DNA of 62,672 nucleotides, the filler included. It is 5 parts of 5 records of this genome, joined end to end, with 100 filler letters (N's around TTAATTAATTAA, not from the genome) between each part and the next. Parts side by side here need not be neighbours in the genome. Positions count along the whole stretch, not along the records: positions 36,989 to 48,736 come from DRR723986_16872; 4 more parts are not named here. One strand, 5' to 3'. Below the pieces are notes generated by a model, which was given only the letters and a program-made list of their open reading frames with translations, made no database searches and was not told where the DNA came from. Below, in pieces: positions 36,989-57,678 of the stretch. The translations under genes and the position numbers were made by a program. Position 1 is the first letter of the stretch. Each line of letters begins with the position of its first letter.

Positions 36989-37322
36989 GGCCTAGGTGGC
37001 CCCTGATCACGCAGAGGTACGTCCAGACTGCTCTTATGCCACACTAGCTCTCCCCACAGCCCTCCCGAATCACCAACTGCCCGATCCAAAATATCCAACA
37101 ATCATATACCGCCTTTAATCCAGGCACAAGACATACTTCATCCATACAACTCAAAACTCCGCTGCACGGGAATCAAGTGCAAAAGCGTACAATCAATTCT
37201 TTCGATTACCGATCTGAGCATTGCAGATCTGGCAATTCATCACCGCGTTTTCACTAAGTGTTTTTGATAAGAGCTCCCAGGGCCCGCAACGCAGACTGGG
37301 TTTTTCGGCACAGCAGAGACAC

Positions 37323-37943
37323 TCAAGGTCGTTTTTGCGCCAGCAAAATACTCGAACCGCCACACTCAGGGTCTTCTGGTACGAACTTAACAATCGCAAT
37401 GCCCAGACCATTTAAAAGAGCTGCGTACTTCTCTGGTGAAAAGCTGGCGTGATAAACTTGTTCACCGCCAACATGGCCCAGGACTTCACCCTCCGAATCT
37501 CCGACGGTTAGCATTAGAACACCACCTGGCGCAAGATGTTCAGCAAATTTGCGCAGAGTGACTTCCTGATCGGCATGTGTTAAGTGAAAAAAACTATGCC
37601 AGGCGATGATGCCGTCAAATTGCGCTTGCAGCTTTAATTGACGCATATCCATGTGATACCAATTATTGTCAGGAAAACGTGTGCGCGCAATCTGCAGCAT
37701 GTTGTGTGCGAAGTCAACACCGGTGAGATCAAAGCCCTTTTCGATATAATACTTTGCGATTGGCTCGCCGGCCCCGCAGCCCACATCCAGAATTTTGGCG
37801 TCTTGTGGCAACAAATTCAAGAACCGATCCTGCCAGGTTTTCTCAAAGAGAGTTTTTGAACGTTCTTTATCGAATCGTTCAGCATTGCGCTCGTAGACCG
37901 CATGCGTATTCTTTTCAATGTTTACAAAGTCTTGATTTTGCAT
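37323..37943 (-). CDS. Class I SAM-dependent methyltransferase
   Basis: ILDVGCGAG, TGVD, FDGIIAWHSFFHL and LAPGG. Confidence 0.92.
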   Translation of the reverse strand: MQNQDFVNIEKNTHAVYERNAERFDKERSKTLFEKTWQDRFLNLLPQDAKILDVGCGAGEPIAKYYIEKGFDLTGVDFAHNMLQIARTRFPDNNWYHMDMRQLKLQAQFDGIIAWHSFFHLTHADQEVTLRKFAEHLAPGGVLMLTVGDSEGEVLGHVGGEQVYHASFSPEKYAALLNGLGIAIVKFVPEDPECGGSSILLAQKRP

Positions 37944-38051
37944 TGTTTGATTTTTTTACGTTTCGGATGAATGCTGCACTCTCCGGCCAATATACTGATA
38001 CTTATGCGAATGCTTGTTAATGGCAAGGAACAAGGTTAGTATTTGCGAATT

Positions 38052-40676
38052 TTAGTCTTTGGAATCACTATTGCCATCAATGTCTTCTTTGTTTTTTGCA
38101 TCATCTGTCGGCTTAATTAACAGCGACGATTCTGCAGCGCTGCTTGTTTCCGGCTCGGCAGGCCCTGAGTTTTCCGAATCTACTTTGTTTAATGGCTTAG
38201 TAGTTAACTCAATGAATTCTGGATCTGCGTGCAGAGACTTGAAGTCTTCGCTCTTGGCGGCTTCGGCTGAATAGCTGTCATTTAACTCTATTGACTGGCG
38301 CAATGCTTCGATTGCTGAGGTTCGTTCGTTTATTTTGGCATGCAGACGAGCTTTCTCGAACATTGAGAACGCATTGTGCGGTTGCAGTTCGATTGCCTTG
38401 TTAATTGACTTGAGCGCTTCTGCGAACTCGCCCATTTTAAACAAGGCAGCAAAACGATTTCTCCAGGACTTAATATGGTTCGGATCGAGTTTTAATGCCT
38501 CGTCGTAGGACTCGACTGCCTCACTGAAACGCTCCAGCTCAGCTAATGCGGTTCCGCGACCGTTCCAGGCATTGACATACGATTTATCTAAGCTAATAGC
38601 CTCGTCAAAAGAGCCGAGTGCATCTTCAAACCGACCAAGATCAAACAGAGAGTTACCGCGACCATTTAAGGCAATTACAAGTTTTGGGTCACACTTCAAA
38701 GCATTGGCATATGCTTCCAGAGATTCATCTTGACGGCCTAGAGAACTAAGAGCGTTGCCACGACCGTTAAATGCATTGGCATATTCCGAGTCTATTTTTA
38801 GAGCACTGTCATAAGATTCCAGGGCTTCTTTATAGCGGCCAAGCCTTTTGAGAACATTCCCGCGGTTATTCCAGAGCCTTGCATGCTCTGGAGCAATCTT
38901 AGTCACTCTTTCATAAACTTCAAGTGCGTCTTCGTGCTGCCCTAATTCAAGTTGGACACTACCAAGGTTGTTACAAACCTCTACGTTGTTCTCGTCAATC
39001 TCGAGAGATTTGATATAACAGTCCTTGGCCTCTTCAAGGCGGCCCAATACAGTTAAGGTATTTCCACAGTTACTCCAGGTGATTGCATCCTTTGGATCAA
39101 TTGCCAAGGCTTTTTCGTACGATTTAAGTGCGTCATCATAATGCCCACTTTCGTGAAGTGCAGTTCCACGATTGCTCCAAATATCTGAATCTGCCTGGTC
39201 CAATTGAAGTGCCTGATCATAAGCTTTAATTGCTTCTGAATATCTTTTTAGGTTAAGTAGGGCATCACCCTTATTCTTCCAATTCAACTTCGCGTTGGGA
39301 TTGATTAAAAGCGCTTTTTCGTACGATTCAAGTGCCTTTTCAGTTTGATTCAAGCCCATCAGTATCAAACCATAGCCGACCCAGGCATGCTCCGAATCTT
39401 CGTCAAACTCAATGTACTTCTCATAGTCTATTAACGCATCTTCCTTTCGGCCGAGTGCGAACAGAGCCAGGCCGCGATTAGCAAGTATCTGCTTAAACTC
39501 TGGAGCAAGCTCAACAACTTTATCTATTAATTCCAGTGCTTCCTCATGGCGACCAAGCCCCTGTAATACGGAGATCTTCGTCACCAAAAATCGAACTTCA
39601 TCAGGTTCGAGTTCTTCCGCATTCTCAACTTCTACGAGGGCTTTTTCAAATTCCTGATTACTGATAGAGTCTTGGGCTTTAACCAAGTAGTCCTGCGCTG
39701 TCAGCTGTCCACCGGTTGATTCGATTTTGTTTTGCAGTTCTAACAACTGTTCAATCTTTCGGGTATTCTCTTCAGACTGTTTCACGGAGGAAAGTAAATG
39801 ATCAAAGTCGATACTTTGCCGCAGCGCTTCGGCTTCCTGTTCTGCACTCTGTCTTACCTGTTTCACGATTTCAAGGTGCCCAGATATCTCTTCGCTTTTG
39901 CGCTCAGAGTCAACCAATGATTCTGTTGCGGATGTCAATCGCGCATCCATTTCTTCGAGAATCTTATCTGCGGCATTTTTTGCATCGGTAGCTTTTTCTG
40001 ACAATTTGCTTAACTCTTCCCGTGAACTGCTGAATTCTTCTTCAAAACTCGCCCTGGCCTGTCTCGCTGACTCCAGATTAGTTTGCATTTCGGCAAGGGC
40101 AGCATCTTTTGCAGACTTGGCTTCTAATGATAACCTGCTAATGTCCGCCTTTGACTTTGATACCAATTCTTCAAATTCTTGCTTGACCTGGATTGCTGAC
40201 TCTAGCGTGTTTTTTACGTCTGTTTGCGCCGTGATACTTTCGTTCCTGGCTTTTCGGGCTTCTTCGGCAAGTCTTTTTAGCTTAGCTCTTTCTGTGGAGA
40301 GGTATTTTGTGAACCTGCGATAAAAGAGCGTCCCCAGCCCAGTCAAAACCGCGAGTATCAGCGAGAACACGGTCATGGCACCAGCCAAAATTGCAACAGA
40401 CACGCCAAAATAGTCCGGTGGCTCAACGACTTGTGGCGTGTACTGCAGTGACTGCGAACTCTTTTGACTCATCTGTGGACTCACCCGCAGATTCACTTGC
40501 TCATTCTGTTGTGCTTTGGTTTGGGCTGCTGCCTGATCCACCTGAAGTGAGTCAGGCCGAGCAGTTCCAGTATCTGGCGACTGTGCCGAGGCAGGCACTG
40601 CCAGGCAGAACAAACTCAAGAACATGAGTGTCATACAAAAGGTCTGGCGCCAAGGCCAAATGCATTCAGACTTCAT
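38052..40676 (-). CDS. Membrane-anchored coiled-coil plus 14-TPR protein
   Basis: Signal peptide (VPASA/Q), one TM helix (VSVAILAGAMTVFSLILAVLTGLGTLFY), about 200 aa of coiled coil, then 14 consecutive 34-aa TPRs. Confidence 0.88.
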   Translation of the reverse strand: MKSECIWPWRQTFCMTLMFLSLFCLAVPASAQSPDTGTARPDSLQVDQAAAQTKAQQNEQVNLRVSPQMSQKSSQSLQYTPQVVEPPDYFGVSVAILAGAMTVFSLILAVLTGLGTLFYRRFTKYLSTERAKLKRLAEEARKARNESITAQTDVKNTLESAIQVKQEFEELVSKSKADISRLSLEAKSAKDAALAEMQTNLESARQARASFEEEFSSSREELSKLSEKATDAKNAADKILEEMDARLTSATESLVDSERKSEEISGHLEIVKQVRQSAEQEAEALRQSIDFDHLLSSVKQSEENTRKIEQLLELQNKIESTGGQLTAQDYLVKAQDSISNQEFEKALVEVENAEELEPDEVRFLVTKISVLQGLGRHEEALELIDKVVELAPEFKQILANRGLALFALGRKEDALIDYEKYIEFDEDSEHAWVGYGLILMGLNQTEKALESYEKALLINPNAKLNWKNKGDALLNLKRYSEAIKAYDQALQLDQADSDIWSNRGTALHESGHYDDALKSYEKALAIDPKDAITWSNCGNTLTVLGRLEEAKDCYIKSLEIDENNVEVCNNLGSVQLELGQHEDALEVYERVTKIAPEHARLWNNRGNVLKRLGRYKEALESYDSALKIDSEYANAFNGRGNALSSLGRQDESLEAYANALKCDPKLVIALNGRGNSLFDLGRFEDALGSFDEAISLDKSYVNAWNGRGTALAELERFSEAVESYDEALKLDPNHIKSWRNRFAALFKMGEFAEALKSINKAIELQPHNAFSMFEKARLHAKINERTSAIEALRQSIELNDSYSAEAAKSEDFKSLHADPEFIELTTKPLNKVDSENSGPAEPETSSAAESSLLIKPTDDAKNKEDIDGNSDSKD

Positions 40677-41264
40677 AGTGTCCACGCTATGTGACTGGCC
40701 CTGGAGCCGGTGTGGTTTTAAGCCGTGCCGCGAGCGCCGGAACAGGCTCACAGATAAATATTCGAGGCATTGTGCTGCAATTCCAGGCACTCATTATCGG
40801 CTCTAAGTACGTGAATTACAACCTTTTGTGATACGAATGAACTTACAAATTCGTGCTAAACATTAACAAACCTCAAGTAGCCGAGCCCGTAGGCACTTGA
40901 CTAGATCTATCCGGCTGAGATTTTCTGGTAAATCAGTGTCCTGGAGCTTGCGCCGATGGCCTGCAAGACTCAATAATTAACATGCACAATGTTATGCCTG
41001 AATTCGCAACTGAAATACGCGAGGCTGCGGACTGATTTGCTGGAAGTTTGACTTCCTGAGGGCTGCGGCGCTGGCGGCATTGCGGCGCAGTGGCGTACTT
41101 AACTACTTCTGGATTCCGACACAAGAACTAACAAAAATATCAAAAGGCAAGCCCAAAAAACGGAGTGATGCAGGGCGCTGCAATCAAGACCCAAACCCAA
41201 ATTGTTTAAGACTTTGAAGCGATAGATGCGAATTCACAAACACACAAGAAATGCTCAAACGTTT

Positions 41265-41303
41265 AAACAAAATACGGCCGCCGGAACCACGTTCCAGCGA
41301 CCG
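41265..41303 (-). terminator. Intrinsic terminator after mscS
   Basis: Minus strand CGGTCGCTGGAAC-gtg-GTTCCGGCGGCCG followed by TATTTTGTTT. Confidence 0.65.
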
Positions 41304-41363
41304 CACGATATAATCCGGTAAACAGTCTTACCCGAAGGCAAGCTGCAATGTGACCGCGATTTA

Positions 41364-42179
41364 TCAGTTTGTTTTGTCCATGTGGACGTCCATCTGCGGG
41401 TATGGGAAGGAAATATTAGCGGCGTCAAATGCCAGCTTAACTTTTTCCGTTAACTCAAAGTTCAGTGGCCAGTAGTCACCACCGTTAACCCACATGCGCA
41501 CGCTGAAGTTAACAGCGCTATCACCAAGTTCGGAGACGAGAATCTGTGGAGCAGGATCCTTGAGAATACGGCTCTCAGCAGCAATAATTTTCTCCAGCTC
41601 GGCGCGTGTTTTTGCGATATCATCGTCGTAACCGATACCGAATGTCATGTCCAGACGGCGCTGAGGCTCGGTTGAATAGTTAACAATACTACCGCCGGCC
41701 ACGGGACCGTTCGCCAGGATAACTGTTTTGTTATCTGGCGTCTTAAGGATCGTGTTAAAGATTTGAATTGAGTGCACACCACCAGTGTGGCCCTGTGTTT
41801 CGATAACATCTCCAACCTTAAAGGGCTTAAAGATCAGAATCAACACACCGCCTGCAAAGTTGGCAAGACTACCCTGCAGAGCCAAACCAATGGCAAGACC
41901 CGCCGCACCAATGATGGCGACAAACGACGTTGTTTCAACGCCCAGCATCGAAGCGATACTGATTAACAGAACAACCTTAAGAATGACGCCGGCAATCCCC
42001 ATCAGAAAGGGCTGAAGCGTAGCGTCAACTTCGGAACGATCCATTAAACGTTTAAGGCCGCCAACGATGCGTTTAATAATCCAGAAACCGACTATGAGGG
42101 CAACAAGCGCCAGTGCGATGTCGGGCACGATGCGAACCACGAGGTCCGTCACATACTGCACTATGTTAAAATCTTCCAT
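41364..42179 (-). CDS. mscS: Small-conductance mechanosensitive channel
   Basis: GAAGLAIGLALQGSLANFAGG, KPFKVGD, NYS...RRLD, GIGYDDD and FPYPQ; GGAGG SD. Confidence 0.95.
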   Translation of the reverse strand: MEDFNIVQYVTDLVVRIVPDIALALVALIVGFWIIKRIVGGLKRLMDRSEVDATLQPFLMGIAGVILKVVLLISIASMLGVETTSFVAIIGAAGLAIGLALQGSLANFAGGVLILIFKPFKVGDVIETQGHTGGVHSIQIFNTILKTPDNKTVILANGPVAGGSIVNYSTEPQRRLDMTFGIGYDDDIAKTRAELEKIIAAESRILKDPAPQILVSELGDSAVNFSVRMWVNGGDYWPLNFELTEKVKLAFDAANISFPYPQMDVHMDKTN

Positions 42180-42258
42180 GGTAAACCTAGCCTCCGCAAG
42201 AAACTCAATATTGTTATTTGGTGCTGCTCCGCATAACGGAACCAAATGTATAGCTCAA

Positions 42259-43059
42259 TCAAACTTTTAATTCAGGCGAACCGCTTTTCCCCGGTCCTGG
42301 TACATCTTCGCCGGCCAAAGTACGGCGGATAGCCCGCTCGACGTCGATACCATAAGTAGAATCAATCAGAAAAACTGTTACTCTGAAAACGAAGGTCTCC
42401 CGCCCCTCGGATTCGAGTTCCACGCGCGGCGGCTGCCGCAAAATTGTCCAGGGCATCTGCCGCAAAAGCGCCAATAGCTGCCGCACAATTCGGTTGGGCT
42501 CCGAACCGGCGTCCACATTCACATGAAATGAATGCCTGTGAACTGTAGCAGCCGGATTTTCGCGCGCGTGCACGATTGTGCTCAACTTGCTCCACGGCAA
42601 ACGCCAACGGCGCCCGTCGGCACTCTCCAATTCCAATGCCAGATTGCCACGATTGCGGATGGTTCCGCTTTGTTCGCCAAAACTGATCGTGCGCCCAACT
42701 TCATAATTCGACTGCGATTTGAGCACTATCCCCGCCAGATAGTCGCGTGCGGCAAACCACGCAAAACCAGCTGTCAGGACGATCAATAGCGAAATCGTTG
42801 CAACAATGCGCATGGAGTCATGCACAAATATCTGATCGAAACTCCAGAGCGCATACAACGACCAAAAGGCCGTTTCCGCAAAGGGAAAGCTGCGCTGCAG
42901 GATTTCGCGCTGCGAACGACGCGTTAAAAATAGGTTTAATCCGCGACTTATAACGCGCAAAAGCACAAAAGCGATCAGACCAACAACAACGATGCGCAGC
43001 AGCGCCCAGTTGTTCAGATCAAATGCAAAGGTCGAGAGGTCAAAGAAATCCTGTCCCAT
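42259..43059 (-). CDS. Divergent MscS-family membrane protein
   Basis: Three TM helices, ARDYLAGIVL (TM3b-like), YEVGRTI...GTI...RLPWS middle beta domain and a C-terminal alpha/beta domain. Confidence 0.72.
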   Translation of the reverse strand: MGQDFFDLSTFAFDLNNWALLRIVVVGLIAFVLLRVISRGLNLFLTRRSQREILQRSFPFAETAFWSLYALWSFDQIFVHDSMRIVATISLLIVLTAGFAWFAARDYLAGIVLKSQSNYEVGRTISFGEQSGTIRNRGNLALELESADGRRWRLPWSKLSTIVHARENPAATVHRHSFHVNVDAGSEPNRIVRQLLALLRQMPWTILRQPPRVELESEGRETFVFRVTVFLIDSTYGIDVERAIRRTLAGEDVPGPGKSGSPELKV

Positions 43060-46000
43060 TAGATGACCTCCAATTCATGCAGATGCTGGCGCAGCCAGGG
43101 CTGCACATCTGCCGAAATTTCGAGCAAGCCCTGATCATTTTCTACGAGCAGGCCGCTGCGGCGCAGCACGTCTACATCCTCACGCAGCTCATCGAGCGGC
43201 CGCTCAAAGATGCGCGCCAGCTGCTCCAGACGGCAACGCTTGTGGATTGTCACGTTCAGCAGCAGAACCAGCCACTCGGGGCGCAGAGCCTCAAGAGCTG
43301 CCAGGTTCGGCTTGCGTGGTGCACGCAACGTGATTCTGTCGGCATCAATGCGCTCAATCAGGCCGATCCAGGTGCGCAGAGCGACGCCGACATTTCCGCC
43401 GGAATAATCGAACAACTTATTAAAAAAGCCGGCCAGCGCCAGGCTGCTGATTTTATCTTCGGTTTTGCCCTCGATTTCAAACATCAAACCCGTGGAGCGA
43501 TGGCGCAGCAAAATTGCCTGCTGCAAGTCCAGCGCACGCATCGGCTCACACTCAATCGCACCCAGGAAGTAGCGATCCATTGCGACGATGGAGTTGATGA
43601 ACCTGAAAGCCGTCGTATCGGCATTAACAATAAAGAAGTGACGCGCGCCAAATTCTTCAATCAGCCCAAGCAGACGCTCCAGCGCTTTTTCGCCACCGGG
43701 GCGGCGCTCCCACCAGCGCTCCAGATCGTGAATAATTATCGCGGACTGGCGCGGCAGTGTGCGCAGCATATCTTCACATTCACCACGACCATCCAGGCCG
43801 ACGGCAAAGGCACGATCGACGTCCTGCGGACGGCCGCTCAAATCGTCGGGCACGTAAAGATTAAAGACAGATCCGCGCGAGAAGTGGCGCGCGGCGATGC
43901 TGCGCGAGAGATCACTCTTGCCACAGGCCGACTCACCCAAAATCAGAAGTGCACCTTCAATGCCGCGCTTGTGACGCTGCACGGCGCGCTCCGCCAGCGC
44001 CAGTTCGTTGCTGCGGCCAACCCACAACTCACGCACTGCCAGCTGACGCCCCAGGAACAGCTGCCGGTAATACGGCGGCAAGGCCTTGACGTGATCCGGA
44101 TTGGGCGTCACCTGCTCCACGAAGTCGATCAGGCGCTCAATACCGGCGACTTCGCTCGACTCAAGCCGCTGAAAGCGACGCGCGAGCAAAACACCCTCGC
44201 TACGGCGATAGAGCAGCCCCACCAGCCAGTCATTGATGCGACTGCGCAACACGCGCGTTTTGGAGCCGACGGTCAGATCCAGGCGTGAGCGACCATCGAC
44301 ATTGCGCCAGCCGTCCATGCGATCGACCGTGCGCATAATCATGTAGGGCGTCAAATTTTCGAGCAGGGCCGCGCGGCGCGTTTCGATATCGGCGCGTAGT
44401 TCTTCGAGCGCAGCGCGAATCTTACGGCCTTCGCTGCTGATGCGTTCGATGCTGTGTTTGGCCAGCTCAGCGGGAGTGCGCAATTCTATCGAATCTTCGT
44501 CCAGCAAGGGCTCCGATTCGGCGCGCACAAGTGCCTGATCGCTAAAGCCGCGTGCCACATCACGCGCCACGGCGATTGAGCGTTCAAGGCGCATCGGCAG
44601 GTCGCCGATGTTATCCTGAATCGGGCCAACCAGACGACTTTCCACCTGCATTTCGGCAACGCGGCGCAGCGGCAGTTCGAGCGTCTCAACGTCGGAGAAC
44701 TGTTTCTCGGCCAGATCGCTGTATGCCTGATCGGAAATCAGCGTGCTCAGCTCGGGCAGCTCGGTCAGAGCGCTTTTGACGTCGTTGCGCAGTTGTTCTA
44801 CAACCTGCCCGTACCAGCCGTCTTTGTGGCCGGCCTTGCGGCTGACATTCTGGCTGCTGCGATATCCGGGAATCAGCGGCGCCAGGTTGACGTCTTCGGC
44901 GCCTTCGGCCATTTGCGTCAGGCGCTTTTCCATCTCGTTCAATTTATCCAGCAGAACCTCGCGCACTTCGCGTTCGGTTTCGGCTTCAAACTTATCGATC
45001 ACGGCTCCAAGGCGGCTGTGCAGCGCTGTCAGCGTCAAGTCAAGCGTCGCGTAGTTAAACGTCAGTCCAACATTGCGCGACCAGCGTTCGGCCACCTGCG
45101 CGATGCGTTCGCGCGTGTCCAGATGTTTGCGCACGCGCCGGCGAATGCGGTGGTTGCCGTCTACGGCCAGAATCTCACTAGTAATCACTTCGATCACGCT
45201 GCGCAGATCGGCATGCAGACCACTTTTGAGCTGATCACAACTCTCCTGGATGGAGCGCTCCAGCTGTTCGAATTTGTGTTGCAGCTCATCCGGCTCTTCG
45301 GCGTGTTGGCTTTCAGCGCCGACTTCAATCGCGCGGTCCAGGCGGTCATGCGCCAGCCCCAGAACCTGACGCAGTTCGGATGCCGTCTTATACGCCTCCA
45401 GACCAAAAGCCTGCAGACGCTCAAACAGAAGTTCCGGGAAATGGGTGCTCAGCTCGTGACGCACGAGCGTGCCGATATTCATTATGATGACGGGCTGGCC
45501 GCGGCGCAGGCGCATGCCCAGGCGCACGCGAAACTTCAGGAAGGCAACGCCAAAACTATCGCCCGGCGCCGCCTGTAACTCAGCTGGGTCAAAACTTACT
45601 GCAACCGTTGACTGCGAGAGCCCGGCGGCGGCATCCACAGAATTGAGCAGGCCTTCCAGTCCCAGATCCAGACGCCGGCGCATCTCGTCAACGCGTTCTT
45701 CCACAAATCTATCTACCAGGCGACGGCTCTGATACAACAAGGTGCTGCGCGCGCGTACAGCCGCTTCGCGGCGGCGGCGGCCACCCTGTTCGTCGTTGAT
45801 TTTACGCCAGGACTCGTCCAGGCGCTCCACCAACTCACGCGCTTCGGCATGCAGGCCAATGAAAGATTGTTCGATGCCGACAACAGCCGAAGCCGCAAAT
45901 TCTTTGAGCGCATCATTCGCAGAACTGTAAACCGATTCCAAAATCGAGGCGGGTTCCGACTGCAGCGGCAAGACCGGTGCAAAATCGCGTTTGTCCTCAG

Positions 46001-48233
46001 AGCGTTTGCGTGCCAGCGCCGCCAACTCGTTTGAGTTCGGCCCCAGCGCGCCCGCAAGCGGCTTAAAGAATGAGGAAGCCGAAACCAGCAGCACGGTGCC
46101 AATTTGGCGCAGGACGTCGTCGGTGCGCTCTACAAATTGAACCACATTGTCTTTGTCCAGGCCGGGCAGGCCAAACAGCGTCAGGTCGGCATCAAGCGAT
46201 TCGGCGCGCAGCAGGTCGTGGAAAGGCCGGCGCTCAATTCCGTTGTTGATGACTTTAATGACGGCATCTACGCGCTGCTCGGTCAGCAAATGATCCAGCA
46301 TCTTCTGTACTGGATTCACCGAAGCGCTGTCGTCCACCACCACAATTATGCGTGCGCGGCTGCCGCGCCACAGCTCTGTAGACTGTAAAAACTTGAGCAA
46401 GGTCAGCGCCAGCGTAACGTTGTTTCCGCCCGCACGCCACCAAATATCGATGCGTTCGCGTTTCCCAAAACCGCGCTCGGCATCGTAGTCCATCACCAGA
46501 ATGTTGTGGTCCAGTTCGCGCATGCGCTGCAGCAGCTGCGCAAAACGCTGCGGATTTTTGGTGTTGCGCGCCCAGCCCATGATTACCGTATTTGGCTCGA
46601 TACCGGAGAAGCCGTAGATGCGTGTGATTGTCTCGATCGCATCATACACATTGCGCGCCTCCAGGCGACGCATGAACTTGCCGGGAATGTTTGGGTCAAC
46701 TTCCAGCTCGCGGCCCGTGGGACGCGGAAAAAGATCCTCGGCCTGCTCGTTTTCAACTAGCTCAAAGGCCGTCAGAATTCCGCGCTTATAGACCAGCTGC
46801 TCAGCAAATTCCATCAGATGCGGCCGCATCGCCGGGTTGCCGCTGAACAACATCACGTTCGGACGCCAGTTGCGCTGATGCGTCTGGCCCTGGCTCAAAC
46901 GGTAGAGTCCCGAGCGCACCACCGACGACCAGACACCTTCCCAGGTATCGCCGCTTTCCAGCGTCAACTCACGTCGTTTTAGAAAGATGTACAACACGCC
47001 CAGCACCACCAGCGCACCAAAGGAGGCCAGCGGATTGAGCTGCGTCATAATGCCTATACAGGTCGCAAATCCCAGCCAGGCAATCCACGATGGAATTTTG
47101 AAGGTCGGCCGGAAATCAGTGCTGCCAAAACTTTCTATCGCATAACTCAGGTTGAGTACGCCGTAGGTGGTGATGAAGAACATCGAAACAACAGCGGCAA
47201 TCGCGTCCAGCTCACCAATCAGAATCCCGGCTTCGGCAATTACAATCACCAGCAGCATGGCATTCCGTGGTTCATTGCCGACGCCGTGCCCTTTGGCAAA
47301 CCACTTGGGTGTAATGCCGTCCAGCGAAGTCGCCTGCAGAATCCGTGGTGCTCCCAGGATACTGCCAATCGCCGAAGAAAGCGTTGCGCCCCAAATCCCG
47401 GCCACCACAAAGGGCGCCCAGATCGCAATGTCATTCAGAATTGTAGGGTTGTTGCGCAACTGCTCTGCATCGACCGTCAGCCCCAGGAAAATCGTAAATC
47501 CGATGTAGACAATCAGGCCAAAAACGATTGCGGCAATCGTTCCGACCGGCAGCGAACGCCGCGGATCTTTCAAGTCGCCCGACATCTGCACACCAGTCGT
47601 GAACCCCGTCACCGCCGGAAAAAATATCCCAAACAATACAAGTAACGAGCTGCTGCCACCTTCACCACTGCCAACACTCGTCAGCCCGCTGACAGCATCG
47701 GCCGAGGGCGCAAAATCATGCTGACCAAAAAAGACGGCGACCAGGGACATCCCAATCGCAGCCATAATAAAGTACTGTGTTTTAATCGCCAGCGAGGTGC
47801 TGATATAGGTAATGATCGCCACTGCCGCCAGCGCAATCGAACCGCAGATCCGAATATTATCTTTAGTGACTTCCCAGTCGAAGTACGCCAGGAAACTCTC
47901 GGAAAAACCAATCAGGTAGAGGCTAATGCTACAGGAAAAACCAACGAAGAGCGCCAGGCCCAGCGTCCCCCCCACCGGCAGCCCCATACTGCGCGAAATG
48001 ATGTAGTAGTTCCCGCCGACCCGCACCTTCTTATCGGTCGCTATCGAGGCGACACTCAGGCCGGTCGTAAACGAAATCAGGTGCGCTACAACAATGATCA
48101 GGATCGTGGTTACAATCCCGGCCTCACCAATAATCCACGGCAGGCGCAAATACATTATGACGCCGAGGATCGTCAGAATCGACGGAGTAAACACTCCACC
48201 GAAGGTTCCTAACTTCGAATTGCCAGACGCCAT
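43059..48233 (-). CDS. SLC12/CCC cation-chloride cotransporter fused to a long helical region and a C-terminal P-loop NTPase/wHTH
   Basis: GVFTPSILTILGVIMYLR, GGNYYIISRSMG, FFPAVTG...SGDLKDP, ATLSSA...APRILQA, NWRPN, IEPNTVIMGW and IDIWW; then Walker A GESACGKS and Walker B IIIHDLE. Confidence 0.9.
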   Translation of the reverse strand: MASGNSKLGTFGGVFTPSILTILGVIMYLRLPWIIGEAGIVTTILIIVVAHLISFTTGLSVASIATDKKVRVGGNYYIISRSMGLPVGGTLGLALFVGFSCSISLYLIGFSESFLAYFDWEVTKDNIRICGSIALAAVAIITYISTSLAIKTQYFIMAAIGMSLVAVFFGQHDFAPSADAVSGLTSVGSGEGGSSSLLVLFGIFFPAVTGFTTGVQMSGDLKDPRRSLPVGTIAAIVFGLIVYIGFTIFLGLTVDAEQLRNNPTILNDIAIWAPFVVAGIWGATLSSAIGSILGAPRILQATSLDGITPKWFAKGHGVGNEPRNAMLLVIVIAEAGILIGELDAIAAVVSMFFITTYGVLNLSYAIESFGSTDFRPTFKIPSWIAWLGFATCIGIMTQLNPLASFGALVVLGVLYIFLKRRELTLESGDTWEGVWSSVVRSGLYRLSQGQTHQRNWRPNVMLFSGNPAMRPHLMEFAEQLVYKRGILTAFELVENEQAEDLFPRPTGRELEVDPNIPGKFMRRLEARNVYDAIETITRIYGFSGIEPNTVIMGWARNTKNPQRFAQLLQRMRELDHNILVMDYDAERGFGKRERIDIWWRAGGNNVTLALTLLKFLQSTELWRGSRARIIVVVDDSASVNPVQKMLDHLLTEQRVDAVIKVINNGIERRPFHDLLRAESLDADLTLFGLPGLDKDNVVQFVERTDDVLRQIGTVLLVSASSFFKPLAGALGPNSNELAALARKRSEDKRDFAPVLPLQSEPASILESVYSSANDALKEFAASAVVGIEQSFIGLHAEARELVERLDESWRKINDEQGGRRRREAAVRARSTLLYQSRRLVDRFVEERVDEMRRRLDLGLEGLLNSVDAAAGLSQSTVAVSFDPAELQAAPGDSFGVAFLKFRVRLGMRLRRGQPVIIMNIGTLVRHELSTHFPELLFERLQAFGLEAYKTASELRQVLGLAHDRLDRAIEVGAESQHAEEPDELQHKFEQLERSIQESCDQLKSGLHADLRSVIEVITSEILAVDGNHRIRRRVRKHLDTRERIAQVAERWSRNVGLTFNYATLDLTLTALHSRLGAVIDKFEAETEREVREVLLDKLNEMEKRLTQMAEGAEDVNLAPLIPGYRSSQNVSRKAGHKDGWYGQVVEQLRNDVKSALTELPELSTLISDQAYSDLAEKQFSDVETLELPLRRVAEMQVESRLVGPIQDNIGDLPMRLERSIAVARDVARGFSDQALVRAESEPLLDEDSIELRTPAELAKHSIERISSEGRKIRAALEELRADIETRRAALLENLTPYMIMRTVDRMDGWRNVDGRSRLDLTVGSKTRVLRSRINDWLVGLLYRRSEGVLLARRFQRLESSEVAGIERLIDFVEQVTPNPDHVKALPPYYRQLFLGRQLAVRELWVGRSNELALAERAVQRHKRGIEGALLILGESACGKSDLSRSIAARHFSRGSVFNLYVPDDLSGRPQDVDRAFAVGLDGRGECEDMLRTLPRQSAIIIHDLERWWERRPGGEKALERLLGLIEEFGARHFFIVNADTTAFRFINSIVAMDRYFLGAIECEPMRALDLQQAILLRHRSTGLMFEIEGKTEDKISSLALAGFFNKLFDYSGGNVGVALRTWIGLIERIDADRITLRAPRKPNLAALEALRPEWLVLLLNVTIHKRCRLEQLARIFERPLDELREDVDVLRRSGLLVENDQGLLEISADVQPWLRQHLHELEVI

Positions 48234-48453
48234 ACAATCTATCTTCCCTGGTCGCAAACTCTCACTTGGCCGTGAATATACGCGAATCTAACGTAGTGGC
48301 GAACCCAGCGGCCCTCAAACCCTCGCAAAAACCCGCAAATCCTCAATTTTCTATATCTAATCGGCACACGTGTTTCGCTGTTTACCGGCAGCAATTGTAG
48401 CTCTGCGGCACCCCAATCTCTGGAACCTGGTTTCCTCTGCTCGTTTCGTTTTT

Positions 48454-48490
48454 GGCATATTTCTCAGGGCATTTTTCTCAGGGCATTTTT
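48454..48490. repeat. 14-bp tandem direct repeat (about 2.6 copies)
   Basis: GGCATATTTCTCAG GGCATTTTTCTCAG GGCATTTTT. Confidence 0.8.
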
Positions 48491-48736
48491 ATCCCGGCTT
48501 CCTGCCGGTCGCCGCCGTTTTTGGGTCAGCGGTAGTTGAATAGTTGTTGTAGTTTTTTTGTTCGTCTTTGGGTGTTGAGGCTGGGGCACATGTGACTAAG
48601 ATGCTGCTCACTAAAAATTTTCAGTCTTGGAGTCTCTGGGAGTGATGCTTAACGACTTGACAAACAAAAGAGGCATTGAGTCTAAAAATATCGTCATTCT
48701 GACACCTCAAGACAACCGGATCCAGCCCTAAGGGCT

Positions 48737-48836
48737 NNNNNNNNNNNNNNNNNNNNNNNNNNNNNNNNNNNNNNNNNNNNTTAATTAATTAANNNNNNNN
48801 NNNNNNNNNNNNNNNNNNNNNNNNNNNNNNNNNNNN
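48737..48836. other. Artificial contig linker
   Basis: N44-TTAATTAATTAA-N44. Confidence 0.99.
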
Positions 48837-48837
48837 T

Positions 48838-51800
48838 AATCGCGGGAAGCGCGGTTTTCCGGATGATTTTGATTCGACGGAGGTCGAATTCTTTAACAAA
48901 GCGCCTAAGAACGAGACGTATGGGATAGGGTATCAGTTGGGAACTGAAATATTTAGTGGCGATCAAAACCTGTCAACGGGCGGGCTGATCCGCTATAACA
49001 ACTATACAGGCTATTCTACCATCCAAAGCAACACGTACAACGCTGCTGGTTTGGCTAATATTGGCTTTAACTATGAAGATGGTTATGGGAAATTTCACGG
49101 AAGTATTTCACCACTCAGAATACTCTTTACAGTGGCGGTCGCCGCTGCGGATGCAGCAAATTCCAAGGCCAAAACCGATAGCCGGAGCAATATCAGTGGA
49201 GTTGATAGGCTTTCAAATGCGGCGTCAGCTGTGAATCGTACTGAACAATATTCCGGTAATGCAATTTCAATCTATGACTCGTTTTTGATGGACCGAATTC
49301 GTGACTATCTCTCAGCACCGGTCCATTCACTGTCCACCCCAAGATATTCCGGTGAACACTTCAATGTTCGGTTTGGTGGCATGCCCTTTCCCTTGCCCCT
49401 CCTTCCCGGCATTATCAGCACACGCCTGGGCATGACGGGACTGTACTCCTATCAGGAGTCTTTTGACCGGGAGAGCCGAATTGCCTATGGCTATATGTAT
49501 CTGGGAGATGTTAAACATGGTGAGGGGAGTGAAAAATTCCTGCTGGACTATGACCGTGAGGGTGGCGCTCAATACTCTGCCCGTGACCTTTTCCTCGGAA
49601 TGCCTTATGCAAATGCTGATATGTTCAGTGTTGTGGGTGAGGGAATTGGAGGTGCATTCCGCCTGCACAATCGGCGTGTCGGAATATTTCATCCGGACAG
49701 GCAGAAGAGCAGTGTCAGCATGAATGATATTGGGGTGGATTTCAGTGTTGGCTCGCAGTGGGGCGTGGGGGCGGATGCTTCCTATGGGCAGCAGTCTTTA
49801 ACCATTGACGAATGGAAAGTCGAGAATGCGAATAGTTATCGTTTTATGGGGGACATGGACACGGATGATCCTCACTATGACGGTGAACCGGTCTTTTTTC
49901 GTTTTGCCGGCGACAAGGGCGGTGAAGTGAACTTTACCGATAGCGATGGTGCCGAGAGAATGAACTTGGACGGAGATGAATTAGAGATTAATCAAGATCG
50001 AATAAAACCGTACATGAATGATGGTGCTCGCGCGGGGCGTTCCTCGCACATAAACTTTAACACTAACGCACAGATGATGGATAGCGTTGGGGATGTGCAC
50101 TACCGCTCCTATACCAAGGATCATCAACTCCTGCACGAGTTTATTGATCGCAATGATCCACAGCTGGCCAGTCAAATCGGTGAGTTACACATCGTTAACG
50201 AGGCCGGCAATGCCTACACCTATGGTTTGCCCGTTTACAATCGCAATGAGGGTAACTTCCGATACGTGCGCCCATCCTTCGGTCTGGAGGATAATACATT
50301 TGCGTTTGCAGCCATCAGTGACAGCAGCCACAATCATTTCAGTGGTCAAAGGATATCTACGCCGTATGCCCGCAGCTTCTTGTTAACAAAAATTACTACA
50401 CCTGAATACCTTGACCGCACGGGCGACGGGCCAACGCCTGATGACTTTGGCGGGTACACGCGCTTCGGCTACCGTCAGACCGCCGGGTCATTTGTGAAGG
50501 GCGGCGCAGATGTTAACGATGAATGGTACAAATGGCGTTCACCATACCGCGGTTTCCACTACGATCCAGGGAAGTTAGTCACCGCGCAGGACAATGCTGG
50601 AACGGTAGCCCTGGGTGAAAAGGAACTCTACTACTTAAACAACATCGATACAAAAACACATGTGGCCTACTTCGTAACCAACAAAACACGTGATACAATT
50701 GAGCGTGGCGCGGCTGGAGACCTGATTATCAGCGGTTCGGGTGTGGAACGTCTGGATGCCTACGAAGCGTACCGCGATATTGAAAAGACGAGTAATCAGG
50801 AAGAGGTTTTGAGTGCCTCGGGTGTTATCCCAACCAATTACGATGGACAATGGTCGAGTGATCTGGAAGGCAAGGCCTGGAATGCGGGGCGGTATAATGA
50901 ATTGGCAATGGACAGTGCAACGATGGCGACACCAACACCCAACAAAAACGAGTATCTTGAACGAATTGAACTCTACGCCAAGGACGCCGACGGCAATCCA
51001 ACAAACCTGATAAAAACAGTTCACTTTGAGTATGACTATTCGCTGATGTCTTCGGACCCACAGGATTCGTATCGTCGTCCCGATACGAGCGGTGCAGGTG
51101 TGATCACCTTTGATACAATCTATCACAGGCCGAGTGTGTTGAATTCTGCCTTCGGATTCTCAACAGACGTACGGCCGGAACATGCACAGACACACGTGGC
51201 TATGTCACAGGCCGGCAAGTTAACACTTAAACGCGTCTGGATGGAATACGAAGGGATTGTTAATGCACGTATTAGTCCCTATGATTTCGAATACGGCTAT
51301 CGCTGTAATACCACAGATCACGAAGATTATGCGCCTGAAGTTGCCGCTGTCTATGATGACGTTATCGACGATGTTAAGCAGCGCAGCGATTCTTGCAATG
51401 GGCGTACAGGTAAAATTGAAAACCCCGGCTACCGTTCCACCAACTATGATCGCTGGGGACACTATGCACATGACGGTCATTCGCGGCGGCGGCACTATCG
51501 CAATTACACCGACCAGTCGCCACCTTCGTGGATTGATCCTGCGGCCTGGCATCTTAAAGTCATACGCATGCCCTCCGGCGGTGAAATTCAGGTACAGTAC
51601 GAGCGCCACAGGTATGACTATGTGCAGGATCAGCCGGCATTGGCCATGGTGCGCATGCTGGACGCTGGTCCCGTTGACGATGATGACGAGCATTTTCGCT
51701 GCACGCTGAATGTTCAGGAGGACCTGGGAGTTACATCTACTGAAGAGCTCGATTCGCTGGCAAAACGAATTCTGAGCCTGTACAAAGGGACAGGTGAAAA

Positions 51801-54800
51801 AATGTACTTCAAGATGTTGTACCAAATGAAGGAGTGCGACTTTAACCACAAGTCACGTAATCTTCCGTCCTCCGGTGCAGATTTTATTTCCGGCTATGCC
51901 GATGTGGTTGATGCCGGAGTGACTACCGAGACCGACAGTGGCCGTCCTGCGGTCTGGGTCGAACTCAAAGGCCGCCCCACCCCAATTGAATTGGCGGAAC
52001 AATTCATCCGTGCAGAGCATGTGAAGGATTTGACTTGCAATAGTTTGACTGCACTTAACGACCCGGATCGTAACAGTGAAGCATTCTGGCAGGAACTCCT
52101 GCGTTCAGTGTTTTTTGCCGGGCCGCTGGAGGCCACGATTTCATATTTCTTTACCGATGAACTCAAGCCATTTGTTCATCATAGTTATCTGCGCATACCT
52201 TTAACACGGCCGAAACTGGGTGGCGGAGTGCGCGTCAAACGCCTGCTCATGTATGATCAGGGCCTGGAAACAGGTGATGCCGTACTCTATGGGTCGGAAT
52301 ACCTCTATGAACGCACAGATGGATCCTGTTCCGGCGTGGCTACAAATGAACCCGGTGAGGGTCGCGAGGAAAATGCTCTGGTTGGTTTCCTGAAAAAGAA
52401 GGAAGATCAGAGTGCTCTTAGTGAATTCTTTGCCGGCAAAGACCTTGAGCAGTTTGAAGGTCCCCTGGCTGAAGGACTCCTGCCTGCAGCAACAGTGCAG
52501 TATGGACGGGTCGTCACTCGCTCAATTCACAGCGGTAAAAGCAGTACGGGCTTTGCGGTTAGTGAGTTCTTTACAACACGTGACTATCCCTCTCTGCAAG
52601 TCAAGTATACGGGAATACATCGTGATCCTAGTTTGGCCTGGCCCGTTGTAACGCCGCACTCAAATACGTCCTCCGGACACCGCAGTTCGACGCAAGGTTA
52701 TTCAGTGGTGCGCAATACCATGGCCGGCCAGATCAAGAGTCAGGCGCGATATAGCGGGGAATATAATTCGGATGACCCGGCGGCGTCTGAGGTCGTCGAG
52801 TCTACCGAGTACAGGTACTTTGAGCCGGGCGAAGCAGTCCCAATGTTTAACGGTATTGATCAGCCGATCAGTTACGGACACCCCGGCCGCGAGGTTGAAA
52901 TTGCCATTGAAACACGCAAGGCCGAAGACCGATTTGACAGTGGTGCAGCCTCCTATGATACCGGAGTTACGATTCCAAGTCTGTTGGCATTTCTGCCTTC
53001 GCCATTTGCGCACTTGCAGATGCGTTACACGATGCATGAAGCGTCGATCCAGACAGCTGTTATCAGCAAGGTCATCGACTACCCCGTCATTGTGCGTTCA
53101 GTTACCAGCAGCAAGGAAGGTATTAAACATACGCAGACCTTTGCGGCTTTTGACCCTGCGACAGGAAACCCCGTGATAACACTTAACAGTGACAATCACG
53201 ACGGACTTAACCTGCCGCACTCGCAGGATCACAAAGGAGTATATGCGAATTACAATTTGCCTGCCTGGCAGGAATATCCGGAGTTGGGACAAAAAGCGGA
53301 ACGCGAAAGTCGTGTAGTTGCGGGTGTTGTCAATGGCTATGGAGGGTATCCATTGAAGCTGACCGCGGGAGTCTCGCCCCCATTGGAAACCGGCGATCTG
53401 ATTTATCTGCACGGAGTTAATGATCGCAATGATACGGTTGGAGGAGCGTTCAGAATTGTCGCGAAGACCGGTTCTCCTTTTATTTACGACTGTGAGCCCA
53501 TGGCCTATGATCCCGAAGCGTATGGCTCTGGAACGTTTTTGGCAGGAAGTGGGCAGATCATCCGCAGCAACCGCCAAAATCGTCTCAACCTCAGCGCCGG
53601 AAGTTTAACAACCTACGGTCGCGATCTGGCTGATGTGCTAGATAGCAACGTTCTGCTCAGCTCCTTAACAACTAATGTCATAGCCGCTTCGGCGACCGTG
53701 TTTAAGGATGACTGGGAGTACGATAAATCTGTCTATGATTCGGTTGAAATTGGAAGCACGCATCCTGAAGACCTTTGGTCCCAGGGTATTCGCGGCCGCT
53801 GGCGGCCCTACCGCTCCTACGTCTATCGCGGTGACGTGCAGGCGGGTGTCGGCAGTTCTACCGAGCGCAACTACAAAAATGCGGGTGTACTTAACTCTTT
53901 CACCTTCTTCGACTGGTCACCGAATGCGACGCAGGCCGGTAATTGGGTCGGTTTAAGTGAAGCCACGCAGTTCTCGGCACATGGCGAAGTCCTCGAAGAA
54001 GTTGATGTACTTAACATTCCATCCTCGGCGCGTTTTGCGCATAAAGGCATGTTGCCCTCAATGGTGGCGGCCAATGCCGAACGCGGTGCAATTGTTTTTG
54101 AGAGTTTTGAGGATAAATCCGGTACGGCAACAGATGCATACCACTCCGGATTTAACAGTCTGTACCCGCCGGTAGGTTACACACTCATCGACAGCGTTTT
54201 GCCGACTGCACGCCTGGCGGCATCCGGCGCAATTGTTAACTTCTGGGCGAAAGGTGGATCGTCTCCGCCTTGTGATGTCAGGCTTGGAACACAAACAGTT
54301 ACCCCGACATATATTGCCCGCAGCGGTGAATGGAGTCTTTACGAAGCGGTCGTTAATTCGGGTGTGTTGTTACAAGGCACTGACCGCATTGCACTTGATA
54401 TTCACCGCTTGGCGGATTCTGCCACGTTCCACATCGACGACGTGCGTCTGCAGCCGCTGGATGCGCAGGCCACCTGTTACGTGTATGATAACGCGACCTT
54501 CCGCCTGCTGGCACAGTTCGATGATCAGCACTTTGGTCTGTATTATCAATATTCCGCCGAAGGAAAGTTAACACGCCGGATAATTGAAACCGTGGATGGT
54601 ATGAAAACCGTGCAGGAAACGCAGTACCACACACCACTGTCGGCGCGCAGGGGCTACGGCCTGGGAATTGCCAGTGCGCAGTCAATCAGCTCCAATCTGT
54701 ATCTGCCGAATCTGCCTGGCCGTGGTGCATTGAGCCCCAACCTGCAGATCATGCCGCGACCGGATGCCGCTGATTATCGCCGCAGTGGCGATAATGAGTT

Positions 54801-57514: not shown

Positions 57515-57678
57515 GCAGAATCACAGGGAGAGACATTCGAAGCACTGATCTTGAATTGAATGTTTTCCGCAACATACGAGTTGTGTTCACAATCCGATAG
57601 TTGCCACAAGCAGGTAACGATTTAATACAACAAAAATGGAATATTAAAACGCTGAAATTTTGCAGCGGAGGGATTGTC

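Follow-up and report, generated by a model that had tools for sequence, protein, structure and literature searches.

How might a cell bring the uptake of salt and the release of solutes under one control? The question is raised by a cassette of three consecutive open reading frames (ORFs) on the minus strand of the stretch of DNA analyzed here (the window; 62,672 nt in 5 parts, with positions 36,989–48,736 coming from DRR723986_16872). The first ORF (43059–48257; 1732 amino acids (aa) from a TTG) encodes a cation-chloride cotransporter (CCC) that runs on into a helical region and an AAA+/STAND-like ATPase module, the second (42259–43059; 266 aa) a divergent relative of the mechanosensitive channel MscS, and the third (41364–42245; 293 aa) a canonical MscS. 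We hold, with moderate confidence, that this is a turgor-control unit, in which a nucleotide switch dedicated to MscS-family proteins has, in one clade, been fused to a salt importer. What carries this reading is that relatives of the ATPase module, both fused and unfused, are found beside MscS-family genes. The parts of the cassette are as follows (TM, transmembrane helix).

43062–48233, minus strand: fusion gene (CCC transporter, helical region, AAA+/winged-helix module), 1724 aa; stop codon at 43059–43061
46848–48233, minus strand: CCC membrane core (APC/LeuT-type), from the AA_permease match and the KCC4 and NKCC1 alignments
47910–47924, minus strand: TM3 SLYLI, its Tyr aligned with KCC4 Y216 (KCC4 alignment)
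47370–47387, minus strand: TM8 ATLSSA, holding the serine pair of the NKCC1 Na+ site (NKCC1 and KCC4 alignments)
46053–46847, minus strand: probable CCC cytoplasmic C-terminal domain (NWRP, EPNT, IDIWW), from the TIGR00930 alignment
44226–46052, minus strand: helical middle region, about 609 aa, from the AlphaFold2 model
43062–44225, minus strand: predicted AAA+/STAND-like module, with N-terminal helices (LPPYYRQLF, FWVGR..EL), P-loop core, lid and winged helix, from the model
43914–43937, minus strand: Walker A motif, GESACGKS
43719–43739, minus strand: Walker B-like strand IIIHDLE, followed by WWER (motif)
42259–43059, minus strand: divergent MscS-like gene, 266 aa (Pfam MscS domains), its ATG overlapping the stop codon of the fusion gene
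41364–42245, minus strand (ORF from a TTG): canonical mscS, with a likely ATG at 42179 giving 271 aa (MscS matches in Pfam and NCBIfam)

The fused gene and its transporter

Is the fusion real? A first-pass annotation, made from the letters of the window, had proposed that transporter and P-loop domain form a single protein, and this is borne out by the open frame, in which all of the motifs it quoted are present (NWRP at residues 463–466, EPNT at 554–557, IDIWW at 603–607, GRSNEL at 1414–1419, GESACGKS at 1441–1448 and IIIHDLE at 1507–1513). The gene likely starts at the ATG at 48233 (MASGNS...), which gives 1724 aa; residue numbers here are counted from the upstream TTG, not from this ATG. 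The architecture is also conserved. Candidate stretches numbered 304, with one genome per species across 185,579 species; 294 of them code for a protein related to the AAA+ module, and the 80 best form the set of loci used here. CCC and ATPase form one ORF in 60 of these 80 loci, are split into adjacent ORFs by frameshifts or stops in 8 and are cut by a contig end in 9; the remaining three (L034, L035 and L038) encode a protein of 975–996 aa that lacks the CCC. To judge from their titles, all 80 are metagenome-derived, and they come from Calditrichota, Ignavibacteriota, Bacteroidota, Myxococcota, Latescibacterota, Gemmatimonadota, SAR324 and Delongbacteria. A word-index search returned 11 homologues of 1685–1793 aa with the same Pfam pair, and an exhaustive phmmer search with residues 740–1732 returned 1823 cluster representatives at E<=1e-3, 878 at 1e-10 and 416 at 1e-30; 105 of the 159 proteins collected are at least 1600 aa long. 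The source names encountered for members of the family are "hypothetical protein" and "amino acid permease, partial," and neither Pfam nor NCBIfam has a named entry for it.

A misassembly or frameshift artefact at the fusion point was considered and is ruled out, because the 60 single-ORF loci are independent assemblies. Two loci depart from the common layout. L086 (4031–9127) carries a single in-frame stop (5828–5830) between a CCC part of 599 aa and a helical-AAA+ part of 1099 aa; this may reflect an error in the sequence, a pseudogene or a gene on its way to being split. L075 (6041–21127) holds two modules: in the first, a fused gene is followed by a plain 756-aa CCC of prokaryotic type (with the CCC_C_1st_pro and CCC_C_2nd_pro domains) and then an MscS-like gene, and in the second, on the other strand, another fused gene has its own MscS-like gene.

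The N-terminal 735 residues are a complete CCC, as had been proposed, by their matches to Pfam, NCBIfam and solved chains in the PDB. Pfam AA_permease matches residues 22–427 (1.4e-51), and the NCBIfam model TIGR00930, "K-Cl cotransporter," residues 12–680 (8.3e-113), at 378 bits, which is below the curated subfamily cut-off of 953. The solved KCC1–4, NKCC1 and NCC chains match with E of 6e-85 to 6e-58, confined to residues 11–717, the best for each being 6e-85 with KCC4, 1.4e-68 with NKCC1 and 2.8e-59 with NCC. There are 13 hydrophobic segments up to residue 425 in a Kyte-Doolittle scan, and the similarity of the APC-type core places the protein in the SLC12/CCC family (TC 2.A.30). In the probable cytoplasmic C-terminal domain, the Pfam SLC12 model PF03522 reaches 20.8 bits where its cut-off is 27, and the prokaryotic CCC_C models of Pfam have no match in the fusion protein at E<=0.01; the KCC C-terminal-domain chains 6vw9 and 6vwa match there with E of 4e-5 and 1e-4.

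It is less obvious in which direction such a protein would move salt. According to the KCC4 structure paper (PMC7200160), KCC4 coordinates K+ through the backbone of N131, I132, P429 and T432 and the hydroxyl of Y216, and Cl- through G433, I434 and Y589; the same text has the consecutive Na+-coordinating serines of NKCC1 replaced by Gly-Ala in KCC1–4 and names this as the cause of their Na+ independence. In the phmmer alignment, KCC4 Y216, P429, T432 and Y589 meet identical residues in the fusion protein, and opposite the KCC4 Gly-Ala stands a Ser-Ser (ATLSSA against C-G-A). This TM8 ATLSSA is identical in human NKCC1, and when the 47-aa TM8 segment is used alone, all 18 of the 18 solved chains matched at E<=0.01 are NKCC1 or NCC. 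Among the 105 full-length homologues, the pattern xSS[AG] occurs in 86 and FFP[AS]VTGF in 96. Because the Na+-site serines of NKCC and NCC are kept, the transporter is more likely to be coupled to Na+, K+ and Cl- like NKCC, and so a Na+-driven salt importer, than to be a KCC-type exporter.

The ATPase module and its pairing with MscS-family genes

Behind the transporter, about 650 aa of helical sequence had been claimed; the stretch is there and in frame, with a length nearer 600 than 650 aa. An AlphaFold2 model of residues 735–1732, built on 43 aligned sequences, has a mean predicted local distance difference test (pLDDT) score of 83 and a predicted template-modeling (pTM) score of 0.54, and residues 736–1344 are modeled in it as long hairpins of helices that carry two small beta inserts, mostly at pLDDT 85–95. 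The helical region has no Pfam or NCBIfam family. No solved chain matches the C-terminal ~1000 residues in a PDB sequence search, where the matches end at about residue 717; in fold searches with the whole 735–1732 model, the matches are all taken up by the AAA+ domain, and a search of the Atlas gave no usable match for the helical region.

The last part of the protein is better placed. A separate model of residues 1345–1732 (pLDDT 81) has an AAA+ core, a lid and a winged helix, and Foldseek matches it to RuvB, archaeal ORC/Cdc6 (ORC2), RFC, Apaf-1 and the plant NLR Roq1 at E ~1e-8. In VIA-align, the matches include NSF-D2 (Z 15.4, root-mean-square deviation 3.3 over 208 residues), Cdc6/Orc1 and TnsC (both Z 14.1) and MalT (Z 12.4). 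The models and these matches bear out the suggestion of a STAND/AAA-like ATPase with a winged helix, as the predicted structure combines a P-loop alpha/beta core, a helical lid and a winged helix. A FWVGR..EL motif precedes Walker A, and the Walker B region reads D-L-E-x-W-W-E-R. Of the 159 proteins scanned, 142 have this Walker B-WW pattern (x[DEN][LIVMF]xxW[WF]), and in 130 of those 142 Walker A conforms to GxxxxG[KR][ST]; R1518 and R1585 are invariant arginines of the module.

The stop codon of the fusion gene and the ATG of the MscS-like gene have one base in common (TAATG), which agrees with the overlap noted at first pass. In the 266-aa product, three hydrophobic segments at the N-terminus precede a beta domain and a C-terminal domain, and it passes two Pfam models marginally: PF00924 for the beta domain (23.7 bits, cut-off 20.2) and PF21082 for the C-terminal domain (21.3 bits, cut-off 21). 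It matches solved MscS at E 0.007, and BLASTP finds no similarity between it and the adjoining canonical MscS. Across 60 sequences of this partner family, the Gly of the TM3b "AG" is invariant (60/60), and Trp101 (56/60), Asp106 (59/60), Gly132, Gly149 and Pro155 are near-invariant. The pore helix TM3a of Escherichia coli MscS is rich in small residues (Gly/Ala). The canonical MscS of the window (P0003) has such a Gly/Ala-rich stretch; in the partner family, positions 85–100 of the pore helix are mostly L/I/V, and the small-residue TM3a is not found.

In the set of loci, 78 have at least 750 nt downstream of the ATPase gene, and 74 of these have a homologue of the MscS-like gene directly 3' of it. 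The start of the partner overlaps the upstream stop in 41 of the 59 loci where this could be called (34 by ATGA, 4 sharing a single base and 3 in other ways). The linkage to MscS that the first-pass annotation had drawn thus holds for the small MscS-like gene; it does not extend to canonical mscS, which among the 80 loci follows immediately in the same orientation only in L001 and L002, the nearest relatives of the window, as it does in the window, and is convergent in L004 and L053. The canonical protein of the window itself is unremarkable, with four MscS Pfam domains above their cut-offs, TM helices included, and a match to NF007662 at 3.4e-70 (236.5 bits, below the curated 321). It would be an extra, lineage-specific MscS valve, and its presence in the same operon fits an osmotic role.

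The same pairing is seen where the ATPase carries no transporter. The word-index search found no shorter stand-alone forms, but later genome searches did recover them: the unfused relatives are either 975–1152 aa (L034, L035, L038, L087, L084, L088 and L089) or ~445 aa long. Among distant ones, a 1152-aa relative adjoins a 396-aa MscS in L009/L084, a 1014-aa relative a 381-aa MscS in L088, and a 1068-aa relative a 388-aa MscS in L089, which belongs to the genome of L001. We searched with the L089 protein through 301 genomes of the phylum of L001, the phylum to which the Bacteroidota genome of L035 also belongs. Matches were found in 61 of the 301, in frames of ~445, 1000, 1500 and 1700 aa, and in all 30 of the 30 loci fetched from these positive genomes the next gene downstream, in the same orientation, is of the MscS family, with Pfam beta-domain scores of ~1e-21. 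The early reading had made a point of looking for ATPase halves that stand alone beside mscS genes, and such pairs are present at every locus fetched. With the AAA+ module of the window as query, 59 of the same 301 genomes matched, five of them in frames of 1671–1821 aa at E<=1e-56 and the remainder unfused; a 448-aa unfused member aligns with the window module in hhalign with 99.7% probability (E 5e-27, 360 columns), the homology extending across the entire module. As a side observation, five genomes (G365, G383, G208, G471 and G239) have relatives of the AAA+ module in open frames of ~1470–1580 aa, a further architecture.

The unfused proteins have no Pfam or NCBIfam name, and in six of them no convincing membrane segment was found, two having one segment just over the threshold. 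In L034 (7983–10106) and L035 (11915–14038), a 707-aa fusion of a Na+/H+ exchanger with Usp follows the helical-AAA+/MscS-like pair, and L035 has a second exchanger divergently upstream; to judge from these genes, cation transport appears as a recurring theme in these two loci without a CCC. The other unfused loci have no constant third gene.

We compared the modules in a quick maximum-likelihood tree of 88 rows, with a root assumed on four distant unfused rows and a long-branch warning. L034, L035 and L038 fall inside a fused Bacteroidota clade, beside L086 (SH-aLRT 97), and because of this nesting their stand-alone proteins look like secondary losses of the CCC. The window groups with L001 and L002 (support 100) within a set of Calditrichota, Latescibacterota and Ignavibacteriota (95). 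At the DNA level, the window aligns with L001 and L002 only over 41373–48234, which is the three-gene cassette, at 73% nucleotide identity, and the G+C content at third codon positions (GC3) is 0.67 in the fusion gene versus 0.45–0.54 in neighboring genes; the three genes may have moved together by transfer.

The favored reading and its rivals

In the turgor-control reading, two parts would work together. The first would be a Na+-coupled, NKCC-type cation-chloride symporter for salt uptake, connected through a helical arm of ~600 aa to the AAA+/STAND-like module. The second would be the small, divergent MscS-family membrane protein, made from the same mRNA by translational coupling. The module would bind the MscS-like oligomer at its cytoplasmic cage, and the module's ATP-dependent switching or oligomerization would link membrane tension or channel state to transporter activity, or the reverse; alternatively, it would couple the nucleotide state of the cell to both channel and transporter. 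In either case, salt import and solute release would be controlled reciprocally. We infer the substrates of transport and their direction, the hydrolysis of nucleotide, the contact between the proteins and which way signals run. A broader proposition, which we put forward tentatively and think rather less likely to hold, is that many bacterial MscS-family channels are non-autonomous, their state being set or read by a dedicated AAA+/STAND-like ATPase, and that the NKCC-type fusion of one large clade is an ATP-dependent turgor homeostat.

Several observations weigh against the favored reading. First, the overall score of the transporter part is nearest the KCCs (6e-85, versus 1.4e-68 for NKCC1). 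Second, Walker A is non-canonical in 12 of 142 proteins, about 1 in 10, and the Walker B pattern is unmatched in 17 of 159; given these exceptions, a pure scaffold role is possible in some lineages. Third, Pfam AAA_16 reaches 28.3 bits, below its cut-off of 32.6, so that the module falls outside the curated family. Fourth, the MscS-like gene is missing from 4 of the 78 loci (L023, L070, L071 and L073), and a profile search recovered it in none of them. Fifth, given its bulky pore helix, the MscS-like partner may not conduct like MscS. Finally, AAA+ rings usually have six subunits, MscS has seven and CCCs have two, numbers that do not readily give the stoichiometry of a shared complex.

The alternative that survives best, and that we still consider unlikely, is co-regulation without contact. 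Here the AAA+ module would regulate only the transporter to which it is attached (in unfused proteins, something else), and the MscS-like protein would be an independent valve. Membership in an operon is by itself no proof of contact, and canonical mscS shares the operon yet is not conserved there. But co-regulation leaves unexplained why the pairing should persist through frames of ~445, 1000 and 1700 aa (74 of 78 loci of the fused kind, and all 30 of the unfused), why stop and start should overlap so often (41/59), and why a channel should be the sole constant neighbor of soluble, unfused ATPases.

Slightly less likely again, the AAA+ module could be a chaperone-like factor for the assembly, insertion or quality control of the MscS-like oligomer. 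Translational coupling would suit co-translational assembly, and the best VIA matches do include remodeling ATPases of the NSF-D2, p97-like, Vps4 and ClpB types. They stand, however, next to ORC/Cdc6, MalT, Apaf-1 and Roq1, whose families (ORC/Cdc6, MalT, Apaf-1 and NLR) act as switches, and together with the FWVGR..EL motif and the post-lid winged helix these point to a switch-type NTPase. No pore-loop or substrate-threading features were seen, though none was specifically looked for, and assembly alone does not readily explain why the module should be covalently joined to a transporter.

An anti-phage or abortive-infection device, in which a STAND-like sensor would drive ion flux on infection as in Tmn, seems improbable. 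In its favor, defense systems often use STAND NTPases with membrane effectors, and the DNA alignment with L001 and L002 is confined to the cassette, which has a raised GC3. Tmn itself exports ions and has a helical arm, according to a preprint (bioRxiv 10.64898/2026.03.01.708804). Opposing this, PADLOC gave no real match to the cassette, only a P-loop-level one to mad8 (E 9e-4, 16.8 bits), and the neighboring genes are not defense genes. The AAA+ tree is ordered by phylum, in large clades, and is not scattered; the helical region is conserved rather than hypervariable, and all of the substrate-site residues of working CCCs are kept.

Least probable of all is a membrane-tethered, transport-coupled transcription regulator whose winged helix binds DNA, as those of ORC/Cdc6 do: the winged helix-turn-helix matches that could speak for it are weak (HlyU, E 0.17; TrmB and Csa3 in the paralogue L089), a post-lid winged helix is integral to STAND/ORC modules, in agreement with the Foldseek and VIA matches, and the sole conserved genomic partner is a channel, with no regulon.

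Relation to known systems and setting of the cassette

The turgor-control unit that we favor would be assembled from parts of known kinds. The MscS channels that have been characterized are a textbook case of gating by tension alone. The partner has the three hydrophobic segments, the beta and C-terminal domains and the TM3b Gly of that family; it differs from it in being very divergent, with a bulky pore helix and a near-invariant Trp and Asp, and in being encoded behind an AAA+ gene. With the AAA_16/STAND and ORC/Cdc6 switches (MalT, Apaf-1, plant NLRs and Cdc6), the module has in common the P-loop core, lid, winged helix and FxGR..EL, but it falls below the AAA_16 cut-off, has the distinctive D-L-E-x-W-W-E-R, lacks a repeat-type sensor domain and occurs joined to, or encoded beside, ion-transport proteins. 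A parallel in working may be the RCK rings of TrkAH and KtrAB and the KefF and KefG of KefC and KefB, cytoplasmic nucleotide-binding regulators whose genes often lie beside or overlap that of the membrane protein. The likeness is one of analogy only, a nucleotide-binding protein setting a turgor-related ion pathway; these have unrelated Rossmann RCK or flavodoxin-like folds rather than AAA+ and are not known to include an MscS-type partner or a CCC.

With the SLC12 CCCs (NKCC1, NCC, KCC1–4 and archaeal MaCCC), the fusion shares the membrane core and probably the two-lobed cytoplasmic C-terminal domain, and its residues at the Na+, K+ and Cl- sites are those of NKCC1. It differs in lacking an N-terminal regulatory tail, with ~10 residues before TM1, and in its ~1000 extra residues with the AAA+ module; moreover, the plain CCC of L075 matches the prokaryotic CCC_C models, whereas the C-terminal domain of the fusion does not. 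The available parts of the CCC literature consulted (PMC4301019, PMC7200160 and PMC8280820) name only archaeal MaCCC among prokaryotic CCCs and mention no ATPase extension. Tmn, a YobI-family membrane P-loop NTPase that defends against phage by plasmolysis and changes the ion content of the cell, is, like the fusion, a large membrane-linked NTPase with a helical arm; as far as the accessible portion of the preprint describes it (bioRxiv 10.64898/2026.03.01.708804), it differs in belonging to another NTPase family, in having membrane helices inside the P-loop domain, in being triggered by a phage protein and in lacking transporter and MscS domains. In the literature outside subscription journals and supplements, we found no paper that describes a CCC fused to an ATPase, and none on an ATPase that partners MscS; the parts are of known kinds, and it is their combination and the ATPase–MscS pairing that we did not find described.

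CCCs are major drug targets whose regulation has been studied almost only in animals, and the fusion family would represent a bacterial CCC branch with NKCC-type ion sites and a built-in, nucleotide-dependent regulator unlike the animal ones. If the homeostat exists, it would be the bacterial counterpart of the kinase-based control of NKCC and KCC that sets volume in animal cells. A conserved ATPase partner would likewise add to bacterial osmoprotection an energy- or signal-dependent layer beyond tension gating, and about one-fifth of the 301 genomes sampled in one phylum carry such a partner. The small, soluble, unfused pairs make the ATPase–MscS question directly testable, and since some of them sit on contigs several megabases long, tractable organisms that have them probably exist.

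Around the cassette, two further features were recorded.

41272–41306, minus strand: intrinsic-terminator-like hairpin with a T run, 16 pairs of which 9 are G-C, 58 nt past the mscS stop
48275–48302, minus strand: weak sigma-70-like promoter match (TCGCCA, 16 nt, TATATT; 9/12), by consensus only, upstream of the ATG

The first agrees with the early reading of the operon as closing with canonical mscS, identified by its domain matches, and one terminator, given the 16-bp stem and T run. The second carries no weight as functional evidence, as 7 sigma-70-like sites were observed against 4.4 expected. A scan of 40800–49000 with Rfam found no riboswitch and gave a single sub-threshold chance match. 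Just past the terminator, 38052–40790 (minus strand) encodes a 912-aa TPR/BTAD-domain protein that has no DNA-level conservation beside the cassette in L001 and L002. Divergent from the cassette, 48937–54894 (plus strand) is an ORF of 1985 aa with no Pfam family at E<=0.001. Farther off, 30141–35651 (minus strand) encodes an 1836-aa protein that ends in a C-terminal sorting domain of the type IX secretion system (Por_Secre_tail), in keeping with a host of Bacteroidota type, and 57601–62670 (plus strand) is an ORF of more than 1690 aa that reaches past the end of the window.

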